A stretch of 64,000 bases of DNA from a virus (taxonomy: Duplodnaviria > Heunggongvirae > Uroviricota > Caudoviricetes): IMG/VR virus record IMGVR_UViG_3300037466_003234; one strand, 5' to 3'. Positions 50,120 to 58,925 of the stretch are shown piece by piece; the stretch's first letter is position 1, and every line of letters begins with the position of its first letter. The notes beneath the pieces are model-generated. The model searched no databases, had not been told where the DNA came from, and saw nothing but the letters and a program-made list of their open reading frames with translations. Made by a program: the position numbers and the translations under genes.

Positions 50120-50252
50120 CTGTTCGCACGGAGTGACCAAACACCTTCGTTCGAACTGTGAGTCCGCAAACAAAAAGGGTAACACCTGCGAACTCAACAC
50201 GCTTTGCTACTGCGAAGATCTACCCGAACATCAAGTTCGTGAGCGTAACTAA
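50073..50252 (+). CDS. 59-aa Cys-rich lipoprotein (not in ORF track)
   Basis: MKSLLMLILTIGILSSCSHG (lipobox LSSC); AAGGAG RBS; four further Cys. Confidence 0.65.
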   Translation: MKSLLMLILTIGILSSCSHGVTKHLRSNCESANKKGNTCELNTLCYCEDLPEHQVRERN

Positions 50253-50812
50253 CACTTCAGGGCCTTAGCTACAGCGCTTTTGGTAAGACCTACCTCAAGG
50301 GCGATTTTAGAGTAGCTAAGGCCTTTTTGTTTCAACTCCTTAAGCTTATCCCTATCGCACTGGACTGGACGACCTAGTTTTACTCCCTTCTCGCGAGCTG
50401 TATCTACTCCAGCCTGCACACGCTCTCTAATAATGTCGCGCTCAAGCTGAGCCATCGCCGCAATAATGGAGTACATTGCTTTACCCATAGGCGTACCGGT
50501 ATCAATGTTTTCTTGATAACTAATGAAATTAACGCCAAGGCTATTGAACTCGTCAAGGGCATTCACAAGGAATTGGCTTGAGCGGGCAAAGCGGTCAAAG
50601 CGCCAAACCAAAACTACGTCGTGTTGGCGCTTACGGACAGCGTCTAGCATGGCGTCTAACTGCGGTCTTTTCGTTTTAGAGCCACTAATGCCTTGATCAT
50701 GGTAGATCGTATAGGTCCAACCACGAGCCTGCGCATAGGCCTCTAAATCCTTCAATTGAAGGTCAACAGATTGTTTCTTAGTGGATACGCGGACGTAAAT
50801 TGCTGCTCTCAT
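50249..50812 (-). CDS. Serine recombinase, resolvase/invertase type with C-terminal HTH
   Basis: AIYVRVST (catalytic Ser), DQGISG, VWRFDRFARS, ERDIIRERV..G...A..KG...GRP and an HTH; ATG 50812 fits the promoter geometry. Confidence 0.9.
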   Translation of the reverse strand: MRAAIYVRVSTKKQSVDLQLKDLEAYAQARGWTYTIYHDQGISGSKTKRPQLDAMLDAVRKRQHDVVLVWRFDRFARSSQFLVNALDEFNSLGVNFISYQENIDTGTPMGKAMYSIIAAMAQLERDIIRERVQAGVDTAREKGVKLGRPVQCDRDKLKELKQKGLSYSKIALEVGLTKSAVAKALKC

Positions 50813-51017: not shown

Positions 51018-51026
51018 AGAATAAAT

Positions 51027-51067
51027 AGGCAGGGGAGCCTACTCTAGTACCACTCCTCACCCTGCCT
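51027..51067 (-). terminator. Hairpin downstream of the tRNA-like RNA (possible terminator/processing stem)
   Basis: AGGCAGGG...CCCTGCCT 8-bp outer stem followed by ATTTATT on the minus strand. Confidence 0.4.
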
Positions 51068-51090
51068 CTCGTGCTAACAGCCGTTAAAAT

Positions 51091-51223
51091 TGGTGGAGTC
51101 GCAGAGGAGCTGCCCCTCTGGTTACCGCTACTGCAGGTGGGACTCGAACCCACGATCTCCGGCGCAAGGCCGGGTTTTAACCTACTAAACTACTGACTCT
51201 TCGCGGGCTTTCTACTCGACCCC
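51091..51223 (-). ncRNA. 133-nt nested double tRNA-mimic RNA (Ala-identity shell around a second tRNA core)
   Basis: GGGGUCG/CGACUCC acceptor (G3:U70) + A + encoded CCA; outer T-like arm CAGAGG-GGCAGCU-CCUCUG; inner D arm GUUU/AAAC, CCGGC-CUUGC-GCCGG arm, AGAUC linker and canonical T arm GUGGG-UUCGAGU-CCCAC. Confidence 0.75.
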
Positions 51224-51433
51224 ATTTATAGATTGCTTCTCAGCGTCAATCATCCTGCTTATATCAGAGACTATAAAAGCCCTTATTCTGGGCATTGGCT
51301 TGGCTATACCGCTAGCCCACCTGTCTACCGTGGTCCTATGCACTTCGCAACGATCCGCTATTTTATCCACGCCCAGACTGGATACGGCGTCCCTAACGAA
51401 TTGGGCGAATTCTTCATCGCTATAGACTTTCAT
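51212..51433 (-). CDS. XRE-like helix-turn-helix protein (73 aa)
   Basis: LGVDKIADRCEVHRTTVDRWASGIAKP HTH; ATG 51433 by ATGA coupling. Confidence 0.75.
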   Translation of the reverse strand: MKVYSDEEFAQFVRDAVSSLGVDKIADRCEVHRTTVDRWASGIAKPMPRIRAFIVSDISRMIDAEKQSINGVE

Positions 51434-51630
51434 GCTATACGCCAAACCTGATAACAGCGCTTGGTGTAGCAATCATTGGCTTCCAGATTTCTCCAAGGTG
51501 GAACGCCCAGAATAACGAATCCTGCGCGGTGGTAAGGGCTTTCCATCTTAACCACTCTCATAAACAGGAGTTCGAGCGGCAGTGTAAAAAGATTAGACAC
51601 TTCTTTCAAGGCAAGTTCTTTTAAAGACAT
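51430..51630 (-). CDS. Hypothetical 66-aa protein
   Basis: GAGG RBS before ATG 51630. Confidence 0.5.
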   Translation of the reverse strand: MSLKELALKEVSNLFTLPLELLFMRVVKMESPYHRAGFVILGVPPWRNLEANDCYTKRCYQVWRIA

Positions 51631-51637
51631 ATTAACC

Positions 51638-51976
51638 TCAAATCGTGGTGTTAAGATAGGCCTTGGCGATCTCACTACTGAGCTTTCCAGCTGCCGTAGA
51701 CGTGTCTGGTTGGCTCAGAATGCTTACTCCAACAGCCCTTGCTACCATATGGGCGGATACGCCCTCTTCGTCCTTCAGGCAGCGAAAATAACCGCCTCCT
51801 GGGCCGCGCTTAACGTCCACAAGGCCAGCGATGCGAAGCTGGCGCATGATCTGTTCCATGAAGTTTTCCGTCGTTCCGACTTCGCGAGCCAAGTCGGCAG
51901 ATCGAGCCGGCAAAGGCTTAGATCTGAGGGCGGACATGGTATTGATCGCGATCTCCAGCTTCTTGTTAATTTTCAT
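51638..51976 (-). CDS. Rrf2-family winged-helix transcriptional regulator
   Basis: ADLAREVGTTENFMEQIMRQLRIAGLVDVKRGPGGGY; no Fe-S Cys triad; upstream TTGAAT-17-TAGTCT promoter. Confidence 0.85.
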   Translation of the reverse strand: MKINKKLEIAINTMSALRSKPLPARSADLAREVGTTENFMEQIMRQLRIAGLVDVKRGPGGGYFRCLKDEEGVSAHMVARAVGVSILSQPDTSTAAGKLSSEIAKAYLNTTI

Positions 51977-55414: not shown

Positions 55415-56578
55415 TTAGTGGAAATCGGTATTTGACTTATCGTCCAAGTAGTCTTCCGATACCCACTTGAGCGCTTTCTTATTCCCCTCATTGCTATAAT
55501 TATCACAAGCCTTGATCACGATTCCTTCGCGAACCTTTTGCGTAGGGCAATAAACGCTATTTCCCTTAGTTAAGGAATAAGCGTGTTCCTTATTGTAAGG
55601 ACCGCGATAGAGAACCGTTACGTACTCAAAACCACGCTCTTTGGCGAAAGCTTCGACTTCATCTGGCTTCAGCCAGGTTTGCTTGCCAGTGGAAGGATCG
55701 AAAACCTTCACGTCAAACAATACGAAGCGATGCTCCTTAAGGCCATATTCGTAGTTCTTTTGGATGCCTGGGCCAATGATCTCGCCATAGACGGTCTCAT
55801 TTTCCTTAAGCTTGCTAAATACGTCCATGGTCTTAAAAGTGAGACCATAGATATCTTCGCCATAAAAGCCGTTGTAGGCCGACTTGGAGGAGATATCGAC
55901 ATTGTTAGATCCGTAGACGTTCTCGTAGCCGCCCGCAAATCCTAAGAACTTCTTAATCTTCTTCCACAACGTGTTCGTTTGATAAGGAAGCTTTCCAGCA
56001 CGAGCGTTGGTACCATGGAGCTTCTCTTGGATGCAAACCTGCTCACCTTCTTGGAAAAGGTCAGGGAACCACTTAATGTTGTCGAGACCGTTGTACTTGT
56101 GGAACAATGGGTGCTCGGTCTTCTTATTGCGCTGCTTATCCTTGCCAATGGTTTGGGCAAACTTTGGCGCAGGTGGCTCGTACTTAACGATGTTAAGATG
56201 CTCTGCCAAGTCCGTCTCAAGGGTTGCGTACTCAAGATCAATTAACGACGTGAGATCTGCAGGGTTTGCGATCATGCCTTGGGAGGCAAGGCCGCGAATA
56301 CGGATCTGGCGAACACGCGACTTATTGAGCTTGATCTTAGGTGGAACCATGACGCCGTCTTCATTCTTCACCATTGGGAAGAGCAGAGCTTCCACTTCTG
56401 GAGGCAATACGGAGTCGATAGGGATATAAACTACGCAATCGCCGACTTGATAGCGGCCCTTTGGAACCACGACCTGGAAGCCGTAAACCCAAGCTACTTC
56501 TAGGCGCTCAGCGTTATTGTGCGGCGTAATGTTAACGATGCGAGTATATGGAACTTTGTAAGTTGAACCTTCAGACAT
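55415..56578 (-). CDS. ATP-dependent RNA ligase, Rnl2/DRB0094-like with N-terminal OB (tRNA-binding-like) domain
   Basis: EKLHGTN (motif I), YGEIIG, FVLFDV, VREGIVIK and K..S..YL; N-terminal HNNAERLE..GFQVVV...SQGM. Confidence 0.9.
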   Translation of the reverse strand: MSEGSTYKVPYTRIVNITPHNNAERLEVAWVYGFQVVVPKGRYQVGDCVVYIPIDSVLPPEVEALLFPMVKNEDGVMVPPKIKLNKSRVRQIRIRGLASQGMIANPADLTSLIDLEYATLETDLAEHLNIVKYEPPAPKFAQTIGKDKQRNKKTEHPLFHKYNGLDNIKWFPDLFQEGEQVCIQEKLHGTNARAGKLPYQTNTLWKKIKKFLGFAGGYENVYGSNNVDISSKSAYNGFYGEDIYGLTFKTMDVFSKLKENETVYGEIIGPGIQKNYEYGLKEHRFVLFDVKVFDPSTGKQTWLKPDEVEAFAKERGFEYVTVLYRGPYNKEHAYSLTKGNSVYCPTQKVREGIVIKACDNYSNEGNKKALKWVSEDYLDDKSNTDFH

Positions 56579-56588
56579 GGAAATCTCC

Positions 56589-56744
56589 TTAAAAGATCAC
56601 TTGAAAAATCAATTCACTGTTAATTCTTACGACATTGATCATCACAGATTCTTCTGTGCCTTCACATTCAACTCTGTCTTTCACAGTCTCGTCTTCTTCG
56701 ACCTTAGACATCAAAGTACGAAGTTCTTTTAAAGTTATATGCAT
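56589..56744 (-). CDS. Hypothetical 51-aa protein
   Basis: TAATG coupling with the PNKP gene. Confidence 0.45.
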   Translation of the reverse strand: MHITLKELRTLMSKVEEDETVKDRVECEGTEESVMINVVRINSELIFQVIF

Positions 56745-57628
56745 TAGAAATCTCCTTCTGCGCAGGCAAAGCAGGTGAATCCACGGCGGCGCCATAGATC
56801 GACCACTTGTTTTCTGTCATCAATAAAGAACAAAGGCTTAAAGCGAGTCAGGATCTCGAAATCAAGGATGATCTCCTTGGCAACGAAGTCTTGGCGATGG
56901 TCTCCACGGCAACGCATATAGAGATGGTTCGTAGGAAACTCATAGCGCTCAAGCCATTCACGTGTGCCTCGCTGATAGTCATCTGGGCGACCAGAAGCGA
57001 AGACGATTGGAAAGACTCCAGAGAATCGATCGATCAACACAGCTACAGGAACGTTTGGGGTATCTTCCGAAAGGTTAACGAAAAACGACTTCCAATCCTT
57101 CTTTTCGCCGGCAGGCTTGCGAACATGGTGAAGGCGGTGCTCGATATTGCAGAGCGTGCCGTCCAGATCACAAATGACAGCCAGTTCCTTAACACCTTCT
57201 GGGTAGACGAAGTTAATACGATCGGCTTCATCTGGCTCTGGGCGCTCATACTTACTGAAAAAGGTGTTCAAAGCCTGGTTAGCTGCGGACTTATCCTTAA
57301 TCGTTGGATGGTTTTCACGAGCCACCGCACGCTCAAAGCAGACCTTGCGAGGCTGATGGAGAACGGTAATAACGACTTCGTATCCTTTTGTTCTAGCAGC
57401 TTCGATGAAGAACTTGCGCTGATCCTTGCTGAAGTTCATGCGGTCCACGACCACAGGCTGACCTTGAGCTAGGGCATTTAGAAAGATACCTCTATGTTCC
57501 TTACCTTGAGTGTCTTGGTTGATGTAAACCGTATTTGCACCGTGGTCGCCATCTTCATGGATTAGCTTGTGGGCAAGGGTAGATTTACCAGAGCCAGGAG
57601 GACCAACTAAAATGTGAAGTAAACTCAT
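56744..57628 (-). CDS. pseT: Polynucleotide 5'-kinase/3'-phosphatase (T4 PseT-like)
   Basis: GPPGSGKST P-loop, VVVDRMN and RAVAR lid; HAD ICDLDGTL, SGRP, MRCRGD.R.D..K and FIDDR.QVV.LWR. Confidence 0.9.
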   Translation of the reverse strand: MSLLHILVGPPGSGKSTLAHKLIHEDGDHGANTVYINQDTQGKEHRGIFLNALAQGQPVVVDRMNFSKDQRKFFIEAARTKGYEVVITVLHQPRKVCFERAVARENHPTIKDKSAANQALNTFFSKYERPEPDEADRINFVYPEGVKELAVICDLDGTLCNIEHRLHHVRKPAGEKKDWKSFFVNLSEDTPNVPVAVLIDRFSGVFPIVFASGRPDDYQRGTREWLERYEFPTNHLYMRCRGDHRQDFVAKEIILDFEILTRFKPLFFIDDRKQVVDLWRRRGFTCFACAEGDF

Positions 57629-57634
57629 AATACG

Positions 57635-57663
57635 AAGATAACGAAAATAAGGAATTAGGTCAA
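57635..57663 (-). promoter_or_regulatory. Leaderless sigma70 promoter of PNKP
   Basis: TTGACC-17-TATCTT-6-ATG(57628); the spacer carries AAATAAGGAATTAGG on the opposite strand. Confidence 0.75.
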
Positions 57664-57670
57664 CACTATT

Positions 57671-58702
57671 TTAGACAATATAGAGCCAAGCCATGTCCAT
57701 AACGATATCTTTATAGATTTCACACACAAAATCGTCAGCCCAAGCGCGATTAGGCTCTTCTCTAAGTGTTGATTTTTCCTGAGCAATATAAAGCTCCTGA
57801 AGACCTTGCTCAATCATTTCAAAGACTTGTTCGGGAGGAAGCTGTCCAGTCTTGATTTGTAGCAAAAGTTCCCTATCTGGTCTTGGGAATGTGATTTGCC
57901 CAGTCTCAAGAAGTTCTTTAGCCTCGTTATTCACTCTGACAGCATGGGAAAGGGCTTTCCAATCCACTCCGCCTGCCAAATGGGCCTTGTGGGCGCGTTG
58001 TCCGTATCCGTCTAGCATTTTACCCACAATCTCACGAGCATACTTAACGGTAGCGTGAAATGGGATATTGCGTCCGTTAACGCTCAAATGCGGGGCGTCC
58101 ATCTCTCCTTTTGGACCCTTAAGCATGACGATCTCAACTAAAGGAGTTTTCTCAAGAGAAATTAGCTCGGAACACTCTTTTACCAAATCTTCTATGCCTT
58201 GAGCGTGGTGAAGCAACTTTGTTTGAGGATGAATAACATAAAAAATATCAAGCTTATGTGCCACTCGCTTCAGGGCGTCCATTCTAGAGCCCTTAATGCC
58301 ATACTTAGCAGCTTGCTGGCGGGCGTACCCAACGAACGCATTGACGTTCTTATTCAAAAGTTCAAACCTATTCTCGTAAATGCGATCCATGATCCACATA
58401 AGGCATGGATCTTGGAAAGTGTACATGTCACGAGGGGCGAAAAGAACGTCTAAAGCCACCGTCTGGCCTTCCACCAATAGATCCAGATAACGATCGAGAC
58501 TGAAGAACTCCATATCTACGTCGTCTTTATTGTTTCTTTCACACTCTCTCTTAGGCCTAGAGGTAGCAATTGTTCCCTTATAAGTATGGAGAATGATTTC
58601 ACGATCCGTAGGCAAATAGATGCCCTTCAGATCCAGGTCTGAATTGGGCGTATCGGTGCCGTAAAGGTGCGATCCAAACTTAAGCTCGAATATTTTTCGC
58701 AT
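57671..58702 (-). CDS. Predicted nucleotidyltransferase (Pol beta superfamily, T4 NrdC.11/YcgL-like)
   Basis: FGSHLYGTDTPNSDLDLKGIY (GS-x-D-x-D), GQTVALD and DWKALSHAVR. Confidence 0.8.
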   Translation of the reverse strand: MRKIFELKFGSHLYGTDTPNSDLDLKGIYLPTDREIILHTYKGTIATSRPKRECERNNKDDVDMEFFSLDRYLDLLVEGQTVALDVLFAPRDMYTFQDPCLMWIMDRIYENRFELLNKNVNAFVGYARQQAAKYGIKGSRMDALKRVAHKLDIFYVIHPQTKLLHHAQGIEDLVKECSELISLEKTPLVEIVMLKGPKGEMDAPHLSVNGRNIPFHATVKYAREIVGKMLDGYGQRAHKAHLAGGVDWKALSHAVRVNNEAKELLETGQITFPRPDRELLLQIKTGQLPPEQVFEMIEQGLQELYIAQEKSTLREEPNRAWADDFVCEIYKDIVMDMAWLYIV

Positions 58703-58925
58703 GTCGTATCTCCACCTTAATGCTAGGGTCAAAATTAAAAATACTACCAGCGATTCCGGTTACAACGCATTCTATCCAATTGTCGCCGTTTTCTTGATCA
58801 GGATACTTATCGTAAAACTCATCAATAAAATTAGTGACATCCTTAAGTTTCCTAAAGGTTCTGATCTTTGCAGAACAATCCTCGACATAGTGAACCATGT
58901 GGAACTTCTTAGATTTCTTTTTCAT
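58680..58925 (-). CDS. Hypothetical 81-aa protein
   Basis: ATGA coupling to the upstream HAD gene. Confidence 0.55.
   Translation of the reverse strand: MKKKSKKFHMVHYVEDCSAKIRTFRKLKDVTNFIDEFYDKYPDQENGDNWIECVVTGIAGSIFNFDPSIKVEIRHAKNIRA

Follow-up and report, generated by a model that had tools for sequence, protein, structure and literature searches.

The DNA considered here, hereafter the window, is a stretch of 64,000 nucleotides (nt) from a virus of the Caudoviricetes (IMG/VR record IMGVR_UViG_3300037466_003234), and it belongs to a phage from soil or the rhizosphere with a genome of about 170 kb. A gene block that runs leftward closes with an RNA gene of 133 nt on the minus strand, in which a tRNA-like core is nested inside a shell that resembles the tRNA-like domain of transfer-messenger RNA (tmRNA). 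The comparison of homologues argues that this RNA gene is real and not a product of chance pairing, and we regard it as quite probable that it is an RNA of the kind termed mini-tmRNA here. On balance we favor the reading that the element is a phage gene for a tag-less tmRNA derivative, which would be charged with alanine and would act on host trans-translation. The RNA and the elements next to it are arranged as follows (window coordinates):

51091-51223 (-), whole RNA gene, tmRNA-type tRNA-like shell with nested tRNA-like core, delimited by sequence, the covariance models R1 and R2 and shell covariation
51224-51235 (-), AU-rich leader of 12 nt of the GCAAUCUAUAAAU type (YAAUCUWUWWWU), abutting G1 on the 5' side
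51217-51223 (-), 5' strand of the outer acceptor, GGGGUCG (G1, G2, G3), partner of 51095-51101
51207-51216 (-), stemless D-loop analogue AGUAGAAAGC, 10 nt, read from the sequence
51203-51206 (-), 5' strand of the helix-2 analogue, CCGC, partner of 51125-51128, with shell covariation
51134-51195 (-), nested tRNA-like core with a CAG/CUG acceptor of 3 base pairs (bp), from the Rfam tRNA match and stem covariation
51174-51190 (-), D arm of the core
51159-51173 (-), anticodon-like arm of the core with the 5-nt loop CUUGC
51137-51153 (-), T arm of the core
51125-51128 (-), 3' strand of the helix-2 analogue, GCGG, with shell covariation
51102-51124 (-), UAAC linker and T-arm analogue CAGAGG-GGCAGCU-CCUCUG, 6 pairs
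51091-51101 (-), 3' strand of the outer acceptor, CGACUCC, with A73 as discriminator and an encoded CCA; all members have the same UCC-A-CCA
51086-51090 (-), conserved AUUUU trailer directly after CCA, a putative 3' processing site; A(A)UUU follows CCA in 6 of 7 members
51019-51067 (-), hairpin with U-rich tail downstream of the RNA, likely the terminator of the unit, conserved and matched in a scan for terminator-like elements

The outer stem GGGGUCG/CGACUCC comprises 7 bp and carries with G3:U70, A73 and CCA the alanine identity set of the tmRNA acceptor, and the alanine identity positions of the shell are complete (G1-C72, G2-C71, G3-U70, G4-C69, A73 and the encoded CCA). The shell has no D stem; the linker found in its place measures 10 nt in all members with a shell and follows the pattern AGYAGANNGN, and the loop of the outer hairpin follows the pattern NGCRRCN among the members. 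The helix CCGC/GCGG opens via the internal loops GAAGAGU (5' side, after CCGC) and CAGUA (3' side, before GCGG) into the core, which reads 5' to 3' on the minus strand CAG-UA-GUUU-AGUAGGUUA-AAAC-CCGGC-CUUGC-GCCGG-AGAUC-GUGGG-UUCGAGU-CCCAC-CUG. Neither pseudoknots nor a tag reading frame with resume codon and stop were found in the window RNA, the interior being formed by the tRNA-like core. This core (51134-51195, minus strand) is matched by the Rfam tRNA model at 39.6 bits (gathering score 29) over model positions 5-66, i.e., with the acceptor stem left out, and it is the only part of the RNA with such a match; a full-length match to an Rfam family was not obtained. The window core has neither an acceptor of 7 bp with a 3' end of its own nor an anticodon loop of 7 nt, and the two occur together only in the relative L041. 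ARAGORN called no tRNA and no tmRNA anywhere in the window. The elements drawn in an earlier note on this DNA (outer stem, linker, helix, core and hairpin) were all recovered upon direct reading of the sequence, and its statement that the RNA is neither a tRNA nor a full tmRNA agrees with these results.

A single-sequence fold retains the outer stem and the hairpins at an unremarkable stability (z = -1.26), so that the sequence alone leaves the matter undecided and the comparative evidence decides. The shell statistics were obtained on five sequences of the seven versions described below, which contain few independent changes and in which most of the compensatory changes come from one version, L037. 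Across these five sequences all 17 shell pairs are of a standard type in 100% of the cells, compared to 86.6% in shuffles and 43-49% in slid controls, and double compensatory changes occur at 9 shell pairs versus 2.1 in shuffles (0/500 reach 9) and 0-1 in slid controls. In the acceptor, the pairs 4:69, 5:68 and 6:67 covary, in L037, and the pairs G1-C72, G2-C71, G3-U70 and G7-C66 never change, A73 and CCA being invariant too; identity pairs that stay invariant amid covarying ones form the pattern that would be expected under selection for alanine identity. Pairs of the helix-2 analogue vary across the homologues (including C-G/U-A, G-C/G-U and C-G/U-G/G-C/A-U), the T-arm analogue contains 6 pairs of which 4 show double changes in L037, and in the nested core pairing reaches 94% in the anticodon-like and T stems, where 4 pairs covary with double changes. 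The covariation of both the outer acceptor and the CCGC/GCGG helix disfavors the decayed pseudogene with chance pairing which the earlier note had named as its counter-hypothesis. Its drawing of the outer hairpin with a 6-bp stem and a 7-nt loop also stands against the 8-bp version of the minimum free energy (MFE) fold, because the would-be seventh pair is mismatched in L011 and L041. The hairpin downstream of the RNA is conserved with one compensatory pair and is followed by UUUUUU in L029. We consider the RNA structure to be real because of the shell covariation, the slot shared by all versions and the shared 12-nt leader.

Homologues were collected with a gapped DNA pattern on a metagenome collection and with an alignment-based search using the Rrf2-like neighbor, followed by contig look-ups; two covariance models of the shell (R1 and R2) were built and run on the loci retrieved, where they detect one copy per phage. 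Seven versions were found. They occupy a single syntenic slot in related soil phages, with the Rrf2-like gene ahead of it and a convergent block behind. The leader lies directly 5' of the RNA in 7 of 7 members, though the sequence further upstream is unrelated. The first version is the window itself, to which a soil contig of the independent run X5 is identical over 51084-51234 before diverging upstream of 51234. The second is found in G001 (an IMG/VR phage of 170,122 bp), the nearest relative found, with an RNA copy that is 95% identical to that of the window; the differences lie almost all in the inner core and include a compensating change of U:A to A:U in the inner T stem. L029 (22 Logan contigs) has the same shell around a nested core with the 7-nt loop CUUGUUA, and in L041/L042 the same shell holds a complete cloverleaf within helix 2; this cloverleaf has a 7-bp acceptor and discriminator A, is called tRNA-Thr(tgt) by ARAGORN and shows up inside the shell in the MFE fold. 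L037 carries a divergent shell (GGGCCUG...CAGGUCC-A-CCA with the hairpin AUGGAG-UGCGACU-CUCCAU) around an interior of three hairpins with the anticodon-like loop UUUGUUA. L011 has the same shell as the window and an unrelated hairpin of ~17 bp as its interior; a possible tag frame in this hairpin (AUG-GAA-...-GUU-UAA, 10 codons) was dismissed as a family feature, as it falls within a paired arm, has AV as its last two residues and is not shared by the other members. The seventh version, L039/L040, is only 69 nt long and reads GGGGCUG-GCAAGGACUCGAC-(7-bp hairpin)-ACAU-CUGGG-UGCAAUU-CCCAG-CAGCUCC-A-CCA.

The versions form a series, which comprises a tRNA-like-domain-only form (L039), a shell with a hairpin (L011), a shell with a tRNA-Thr(UGU)-like module (L041) and decayed forms (L037, L029, G001 and the window). 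The interior is exchangeable under a conserved shell, being a hairpin in L011, a complete tRNA in L041 and a decayed tRNA elsewhere. Exact and degenerate DNA patterns returned from IMG/VR only G001, the contig of L011 and chance matches, no copy was found in the genome contigs of 185,579 prokaryote species, and single-protein searches with neighboring genes yielded nothing further, the alignment-based search being the productive one. At the matching place the contig for P0068 shows a gap of 210 nt.

The tRNA-like core of the window resembles tRNAs of the phage itself. Its D arm and anticodon stem are like those of tRNA-Arg and tRNA-His of G001, its T-loop is identical to that of tRNA-Ala of G001, and the inner T stem of G001 (GAGGG/CCCUC) is identical to the T stem of its tRNA-Arg/tRNA-His. 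The intact state is represented by L041, with a 7-bp acceptor, GG in the D loop, the T-loop UUCGAUA and the 7-nt loop UUUGUUA. The 7-nt anticodon-like loop YUUGUUA is kept in L029 and L037, the G18G19 and T-loop signatures are lost in G001 and L029, and in the window and G001 2 nt of the anticodon-like loop and most of the acceptor are lost. The 5-nt loop and the 3-bp inner acceptor, both described in the earlier note, are states of decay and not design, given that a full tRNA-Thr(UGU)-like gene is nested in L041 and that the 7-nt loop persists in L029 and L037; on this point the picture drawn in the earlier note is corrected. Even L041 has U at position 37 and A at position 8, which makes a decoding role of the nested tRNA doubtful. 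By analogy to tmRNA the module would sit at the tip of a helix that mimics a long variable arm, away from the SmpB site (PMC3968760).

The shell is laid out like the tRNA-like domain of tmRNA, with an alanine acceptor, a stemless D-loop analogue, a helix at the position of helix 2 and a T-arm analogue, as the earlier note had proposed, and all three helices covary. In tmRNA, SmpB fills the space of the anticodon and D stems, and a long variable arm is imitated by helix 2 (PMC3968760). Four observations tie the shell to tmRNA beyond analogy. Both ends of L039 align to Rfam tmRNA (23.9 bits, E 3.7e-8) with a 326-nt middle skipped, and L039 has the D-loop motif GGAYUCGAC. The T-loops are graded from UGCAAUU (L039) via the intermediate UGCGACU (L037) to GGCAGCU (window). 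A related, more distant phage (L020/L023) encodes a canonical tmRNA of 401 nt (L020:9821-10221; Rfam 65.5 bits; tag AELDSQDSLYEEYEELQAA), whose acceptor is the same as the shell acceptor GGGCCUG/CAGGUCC of L037. Finally, the best clan match of the shell 3' half, though weak (12.4 and 8.1 bits), is alphaproteobacterial tmRNA, and the alpha_tmRNA consensus ACCCGGG-GGCgGUA-CCCGG-CGcCUCCACCA is close to ACCAGAG-GGCAGCU-CUCUG-CGACUCCACCA; this hints, as a lead only, at an alphaproteobacterial host.

The closest known counterpart is the tmRNA of mycobacteriophage DS6A, which is listed as "TLD only" (tRNA-like domain only, without coding sequence; tmRNA Website tmID 11587) and is described, with reference to Mao et al. 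2009, in PMC4131195 and PMC11915505. According to these papers, a DS6A-like RNA consisting only of the tRNA-like domain strongly inhibits tmRNA in Escherichia coli whether it is chargeable or not, perhaps by titrating SmpB (PMC4131195; PMC11915505). Against the tmRNA model the DS6A RNA scores 34.7 bits with both ends aligned and the middle skipped, and L039, which shares slot and leader with the window RNA, matches the model in this way. The window RNA shares with the DS6A RNA that it is phage-borne, in one piece and equipped with an alanine-type acceptor, that it has neither a tag frame nor pseudoknots, and that a short interior replaces the body of 300 nt. It differs by its divergent D-loop analogue and T-loop, by the lack of a two-ended match to the tmRNA model, by a T stem of 6 bp, by the nested tRNA-like module of 62 nt and by ending in CCA, whereas the DS6A RNA ends in CUA. 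The DS6A RNA (L045:99-181; JN698994 28478-28560) is unannotated in its GenBank record.

Bacterial tmRNA (SsrA, RF00023; the alphaproteobacterial two-piece form is RF01849) has in common with the window RNA the acceptor with G3:U70, A73 and CCA, the stemless D-loop analogue and the position of helix 2 between D-loop analogue and T arm, and alpha_tmRNA in addition a similar consensus for the AAC/ACC linker and a GGCRG-type T-loop. In contrast, the window RNA lacks pseudoknots, resume codon and tag, it measures 133 nt instead of about 350-400 nt, its gene order is standard and not permuted, and its score stays below every model threshold. The tmRNAs of jakobid mitochondria and some plastids that have no tag frame (RF02544) are likewise natural tmRNAs reduced to the tRNA-like domain with a presumed tag-free action; unlike the window RNA, they are organellar, usually permuted, co-occur with SmpB and contain no nested tRNA (PMC11915505; PMC3590771). 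A tRNA gene inside a tmRNA gene has a parallel in a permuted tmRNA gene that was reported to contain an intact tRNA-Ala in its intervening sequence (PMC11915505). There, the tRNA lies in the segment that is removed, while in the soil phages it sits at the tip of helix 2 in an RNA that is tag-less and in one piece, and in most lineages it can no longer work as a tRNA.

Several results weigh against a mini-tmRNA. The window shell falls below every tmRNA model, with no match at the gathering score in the window and with only 8.1 bits for its 3' half against alpha_tmRNA, no tmRNA match was obtained on the L011 copy at E <= 10, and none on the G001 copy at E <= 1. For these reasons the RNA is filed as a divergent tag-less mini-tmRNA variant and kept apart from RF00023. 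Common position, leader, topology and intermediate loop sequences are the basis for relating the shell to the canonical domain of L039 by descent, the alignment of the two not being significant. The D-loop analogue AGUAGAAAGC lacks the usual GGAUUCGAC motif and the T-loop is GGCAGCU instead of UUCRANY; the latter resembles the alpha_tmRNA consensus GGCgGUA, at weak scores only (8.1-12.4 bits). Since the binding of SmpB depends on interactions between D-loop and T-loop (PMC3968760), it is uncertain whether the window RNA binds SmpB. No gene for SmpB or for tmRNA was found in the near-identical phage G001. Moreover, no shell was found in L013, L016, L017, L021, L022, L027, L028, L033, L034, L038, L043 and L044, and with the slot empty in most related phages the RNA is dispensable.

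If the element is a mini-tmRNA, the shell would have lost the tmRNA pseudoknots and tag reading frame, and its helix 2 would have become capped by a copy of a phage tRNA (tRNA-Thr(UGU)-like). The RNA would be cut from the end of the leftward operon transcript, with RNase P cleaving at G1 and with an endonuclease, putatively of RNase E type, and exonucleases trimming at the AUUUU trailer to CCA. Subsequently, host AlaRS would charge the RNA with alanine. Minihelices with G3:U70 are known AlaRS substrates, and for this reason alanylation is expected; we regard the RNA as probably alanylated. The charged RNA would be bound by EF-Tu and possibly by SmpB. It might then titrate SmpB away from host tmRNA, as proposed for the DS6A-like RNA, or it might enter stalled ribosomes and donate alanine without a degradation tag. 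Given the inhibition of tmRNA by the DS6A-like RNA, interference with, or tag-free replacement of, host trans-translation during infection is the most likely function, for which we put the chances at a little under even. In this sense the idea of the earlier note, a tag-less RNA that can be charged and that serves ribosome rescue or works as a decoy, is the best reading available.

The main rival to trans-translation as the target is a scaffolded tRNA decoy, in which the alanine shell would serve only processing and stability (RNase P, CCA, charging and protection by EF-Tu) and the nested tRNA body would do the work, its conserved anticodon-like loop baiting an anticodon nuclease or another tRNA-directed defense or sensor. 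The loop is kept as YUUGUUA/CUUGY in five lineages, the nested stems covary, the core resembles the phage's own tRNAs, and genes for an Rnl1-like ligase, Pnkp and RlaP, i.e., a tRNA-repair set, lie a few kb upstream on the same strand in the phage and its relatives. A tRNA-repair set of this kind is used by phage T4 against the anticodon nuclease PrrC. However, L011 swaps the whole tRNA module for a hairpin and L039 has no interior, and as both keep the shell or the tRNA-like domain, the constant part is the shell; in addition, G001 and L029 lack the G18G19 and T-loop signatures and the window loop is 2 nt short, which together make a decoy of this type rather unlikely. We would assign a somewhat smaller chance still to the possibility that the chimera is itself a functional unit of a novel type, in which an alanine-charged tag-less tmRNA head is physically joined to a tRNA body and some factor recognizes the conserved anticodon-like loop YUUGUUA of this body, tying ribosome entry or SmpB capture to recognition of the loop. 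If so, the RNA could serve as bait, luring an anticodon nuclease to a harmless RNA, or as a sensor that reports tRNA damage, and the swappable interior (tRNA, hairpin or nothing) would be a natural 'tRNA scaffold' displaying different RNA effectors. The shell could also be what is left over, in two pieces, from a carrier transcript, out of which RNase P and a 3' nuclease, with CCA addition, excise a working tRNA-Thr(UGU). The complete cloverleaf of L041 with its 7-bp acceptor, discriminator A and ARAGORN call as tRNA-Thr speaks for such a carrier, as do the nine ordinary tRNAs found elsewhere in G001, none of them a tRNA-Thr, and the tRNA-Ala within the permuted tmRNA gene (PMC11915505). No working tRNA can emerge from the window copy, with its inner acceptor of 3 bp and its 5-nt loop, and even L041 has a pyrimidine at position 37 and A at position 8, and its core gave no match to the Rfam tRNA model at E <= 1; the carrier is improbable.

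More improbable still is that the locus has no RNA function and represents a decaying relic, i.e., a tRNA pseudogene whose flanks pair by chance, or a DNA site at which the neighboring serine recombinase attaches or recombines. A gene for a serine recombinase does lie downstream, at a distance of 120-290 nt, in the window, G001 and L029, tmRNA genes often serve as integration sites (PMC11915505), and the differences between window and G001 cluster in the inner core. Yet this recombinase is absent from L011, L037, L041 and L039, every shell helix covaries on both of its strands, something not required of a DNA site, and the shell is 88-98% identical to that of the window in three of the four aligned relatives (L041, L029 and G001; 61% in L037), compared to ~70-73% identity in DNA for the flanking genes of L011 and 40-65% for the proteins in common. 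The likeness to bacterial Y RNA pointed out in the earlier note, that of a tRNA mimic tethering the Ro60 protein, was examined by model score, by a neighboring Ro60 (TROVE) gene and by a Ro-binding stem with GNCGAAN0-1G (PMC4201824). YrlA (RF02553) is a non-decoding RNA with a tRNA-like module, YrlA RNAs occur in phages, and M. smegmatis YrlA is cut by RNase P and receives CCA (PMC4201824). With a gathering score of 69 for the model, the window RNA aligns to it at 18.5 bits (E 0.66), on the strength of the T arm. YrlA needs its Ro60 partner and a Ro-binding stem, whereas no TROVE/Ro60 gene was found in G001, the terminal stem of the window RNA contains no GNCGAA motif, and this stem is an acceptor with CCA overhang instead of a Ro-binding helix, so that we give a Y RNA hardly any credence. 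Among further candidates, the stable RNAs rnaC and rnaD of T4 (species 1 and 2) were dropped after folding because their architecture differs, and an RNase P-processed antisense RNA of the P1/P7 C4 type gained no support, with only chance complements of 9-11 nt to the interior in the window or L011 and no Rfam C4 match in the window.

Returning to the mini-tmRNA, the earlier note had implied that such an RNA is without precedent. This needs correction, as the tag-less form is already known in phages from DS6A (PMC4131195; PMC11915505). The tRNA nested in helix 2, a divergent shell that escapes all models and an evolutionary series at one locus appear to be new. To date, phage tag-less tmRNA heads have barely been studied, and DS6A is to our knowledge the one published case. 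Standard tools do not annotate such RNAs; both ARAGORN and Rfam miss the window RNA, and an Rfam tRNA match without acceptor stem, as observed here, may lie inside a larger RNA. The series in one slot displays the evolution of such RNAs with a canonical tRNA-like domain, a divergent shell, a shell with complete tRNA and decayed tRNAs, and it marks the parts under selection (alanine identity set, CCA, T-arm analogue, leader and trailer). The locus thereby bears on phage shutdown or bypass of host trans-translation, on the binding of SmpB by a tRNA-like domain with a non-canonical pair of D-loop and T-loop, and on the tRNA-like frame as a natural display scaffold for other RNA modules.

The leftward block that ends with the RNA encodes, in this order, RlaP, Pnkp, an Rnl1-like RNA ligase, peptide deformylase, ThyX, dCMP deaminase, an Rrf2-like regulator, two small open reading frames (ORFs) and the RNA; it is followed by the conserved hairpin with U-rich tail, the serine recombinase and then genes on the opposite strand. 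The following neighbors were located:

57671-58732 (-), RlaP nucleotidyltransferase, RNA repair trio
56744-57628 (-), Pnkp polynucleotide kinase-phosphatase, RNA repair trio
55415-56578 (-), Rnl1-like RNA ligase, RNA repair trio
51638-51976 (-), Rrf2-like regulator
50249-50803 (-), serine recombinase/DNA invertase

The RNA repair trio (window 55415-58732) is on the same strand as the RNA and conserved in related phages. The Rrf2-like regulator is only 46% identical between window and G001, compared to 90-100% for the genes on either side, and this points to a recent gene swap. The serine recombinase/DNA invertase adjoins the RNA in the window, in G001 and in L029 (L029:5841-6404); in L037 an HNH-endonuclease-like ORF begins 9 nt past CCA (L037:6370 onward), and L011, L041 and L039 have neither of these mobile-type genes. 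In G001, the tRNA-Ala(UGC) has the same 5' acceptor strand as the shell but mismatches at 5:68 and 6:67, the tRNA-Arg(CCG) and the tRNA-His have identical acceptor and T arms, and there is a tRNA-like gene of 72 nt with a 6-nt anticodon loop, called 'tRNA-???' by ARAGORN (L025, L026:283-354, L026:164-239).

Upstream of the RNA, an ORF for 86 amino acids, helix-turn-helix-like (51212-51472, minus strand), stops with UAG at nucleotides 9-11 of the RNA. The leader contains UAA in L029, L041, L011 and the X5 contig, which is the stop of the upstream ORF in L029 and L011; in the window and G001 this triplet is CAA and the ORF runs into the RNA, i.e., the overlap is lineage-specific and not conserved. 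The leader was also considered as a repeated phage promoter and discarded as such, since TCTATAAAT with <=1 mismatch shows no enrichment in the window (8 sites against 17 expected), and no consistent -35 element was seen upstream of the RNA. On the downstream side, ~370 nt without a called gene follow the RNA in L041 (L041:5427-5796), and this segment may hold a further structured RNA.

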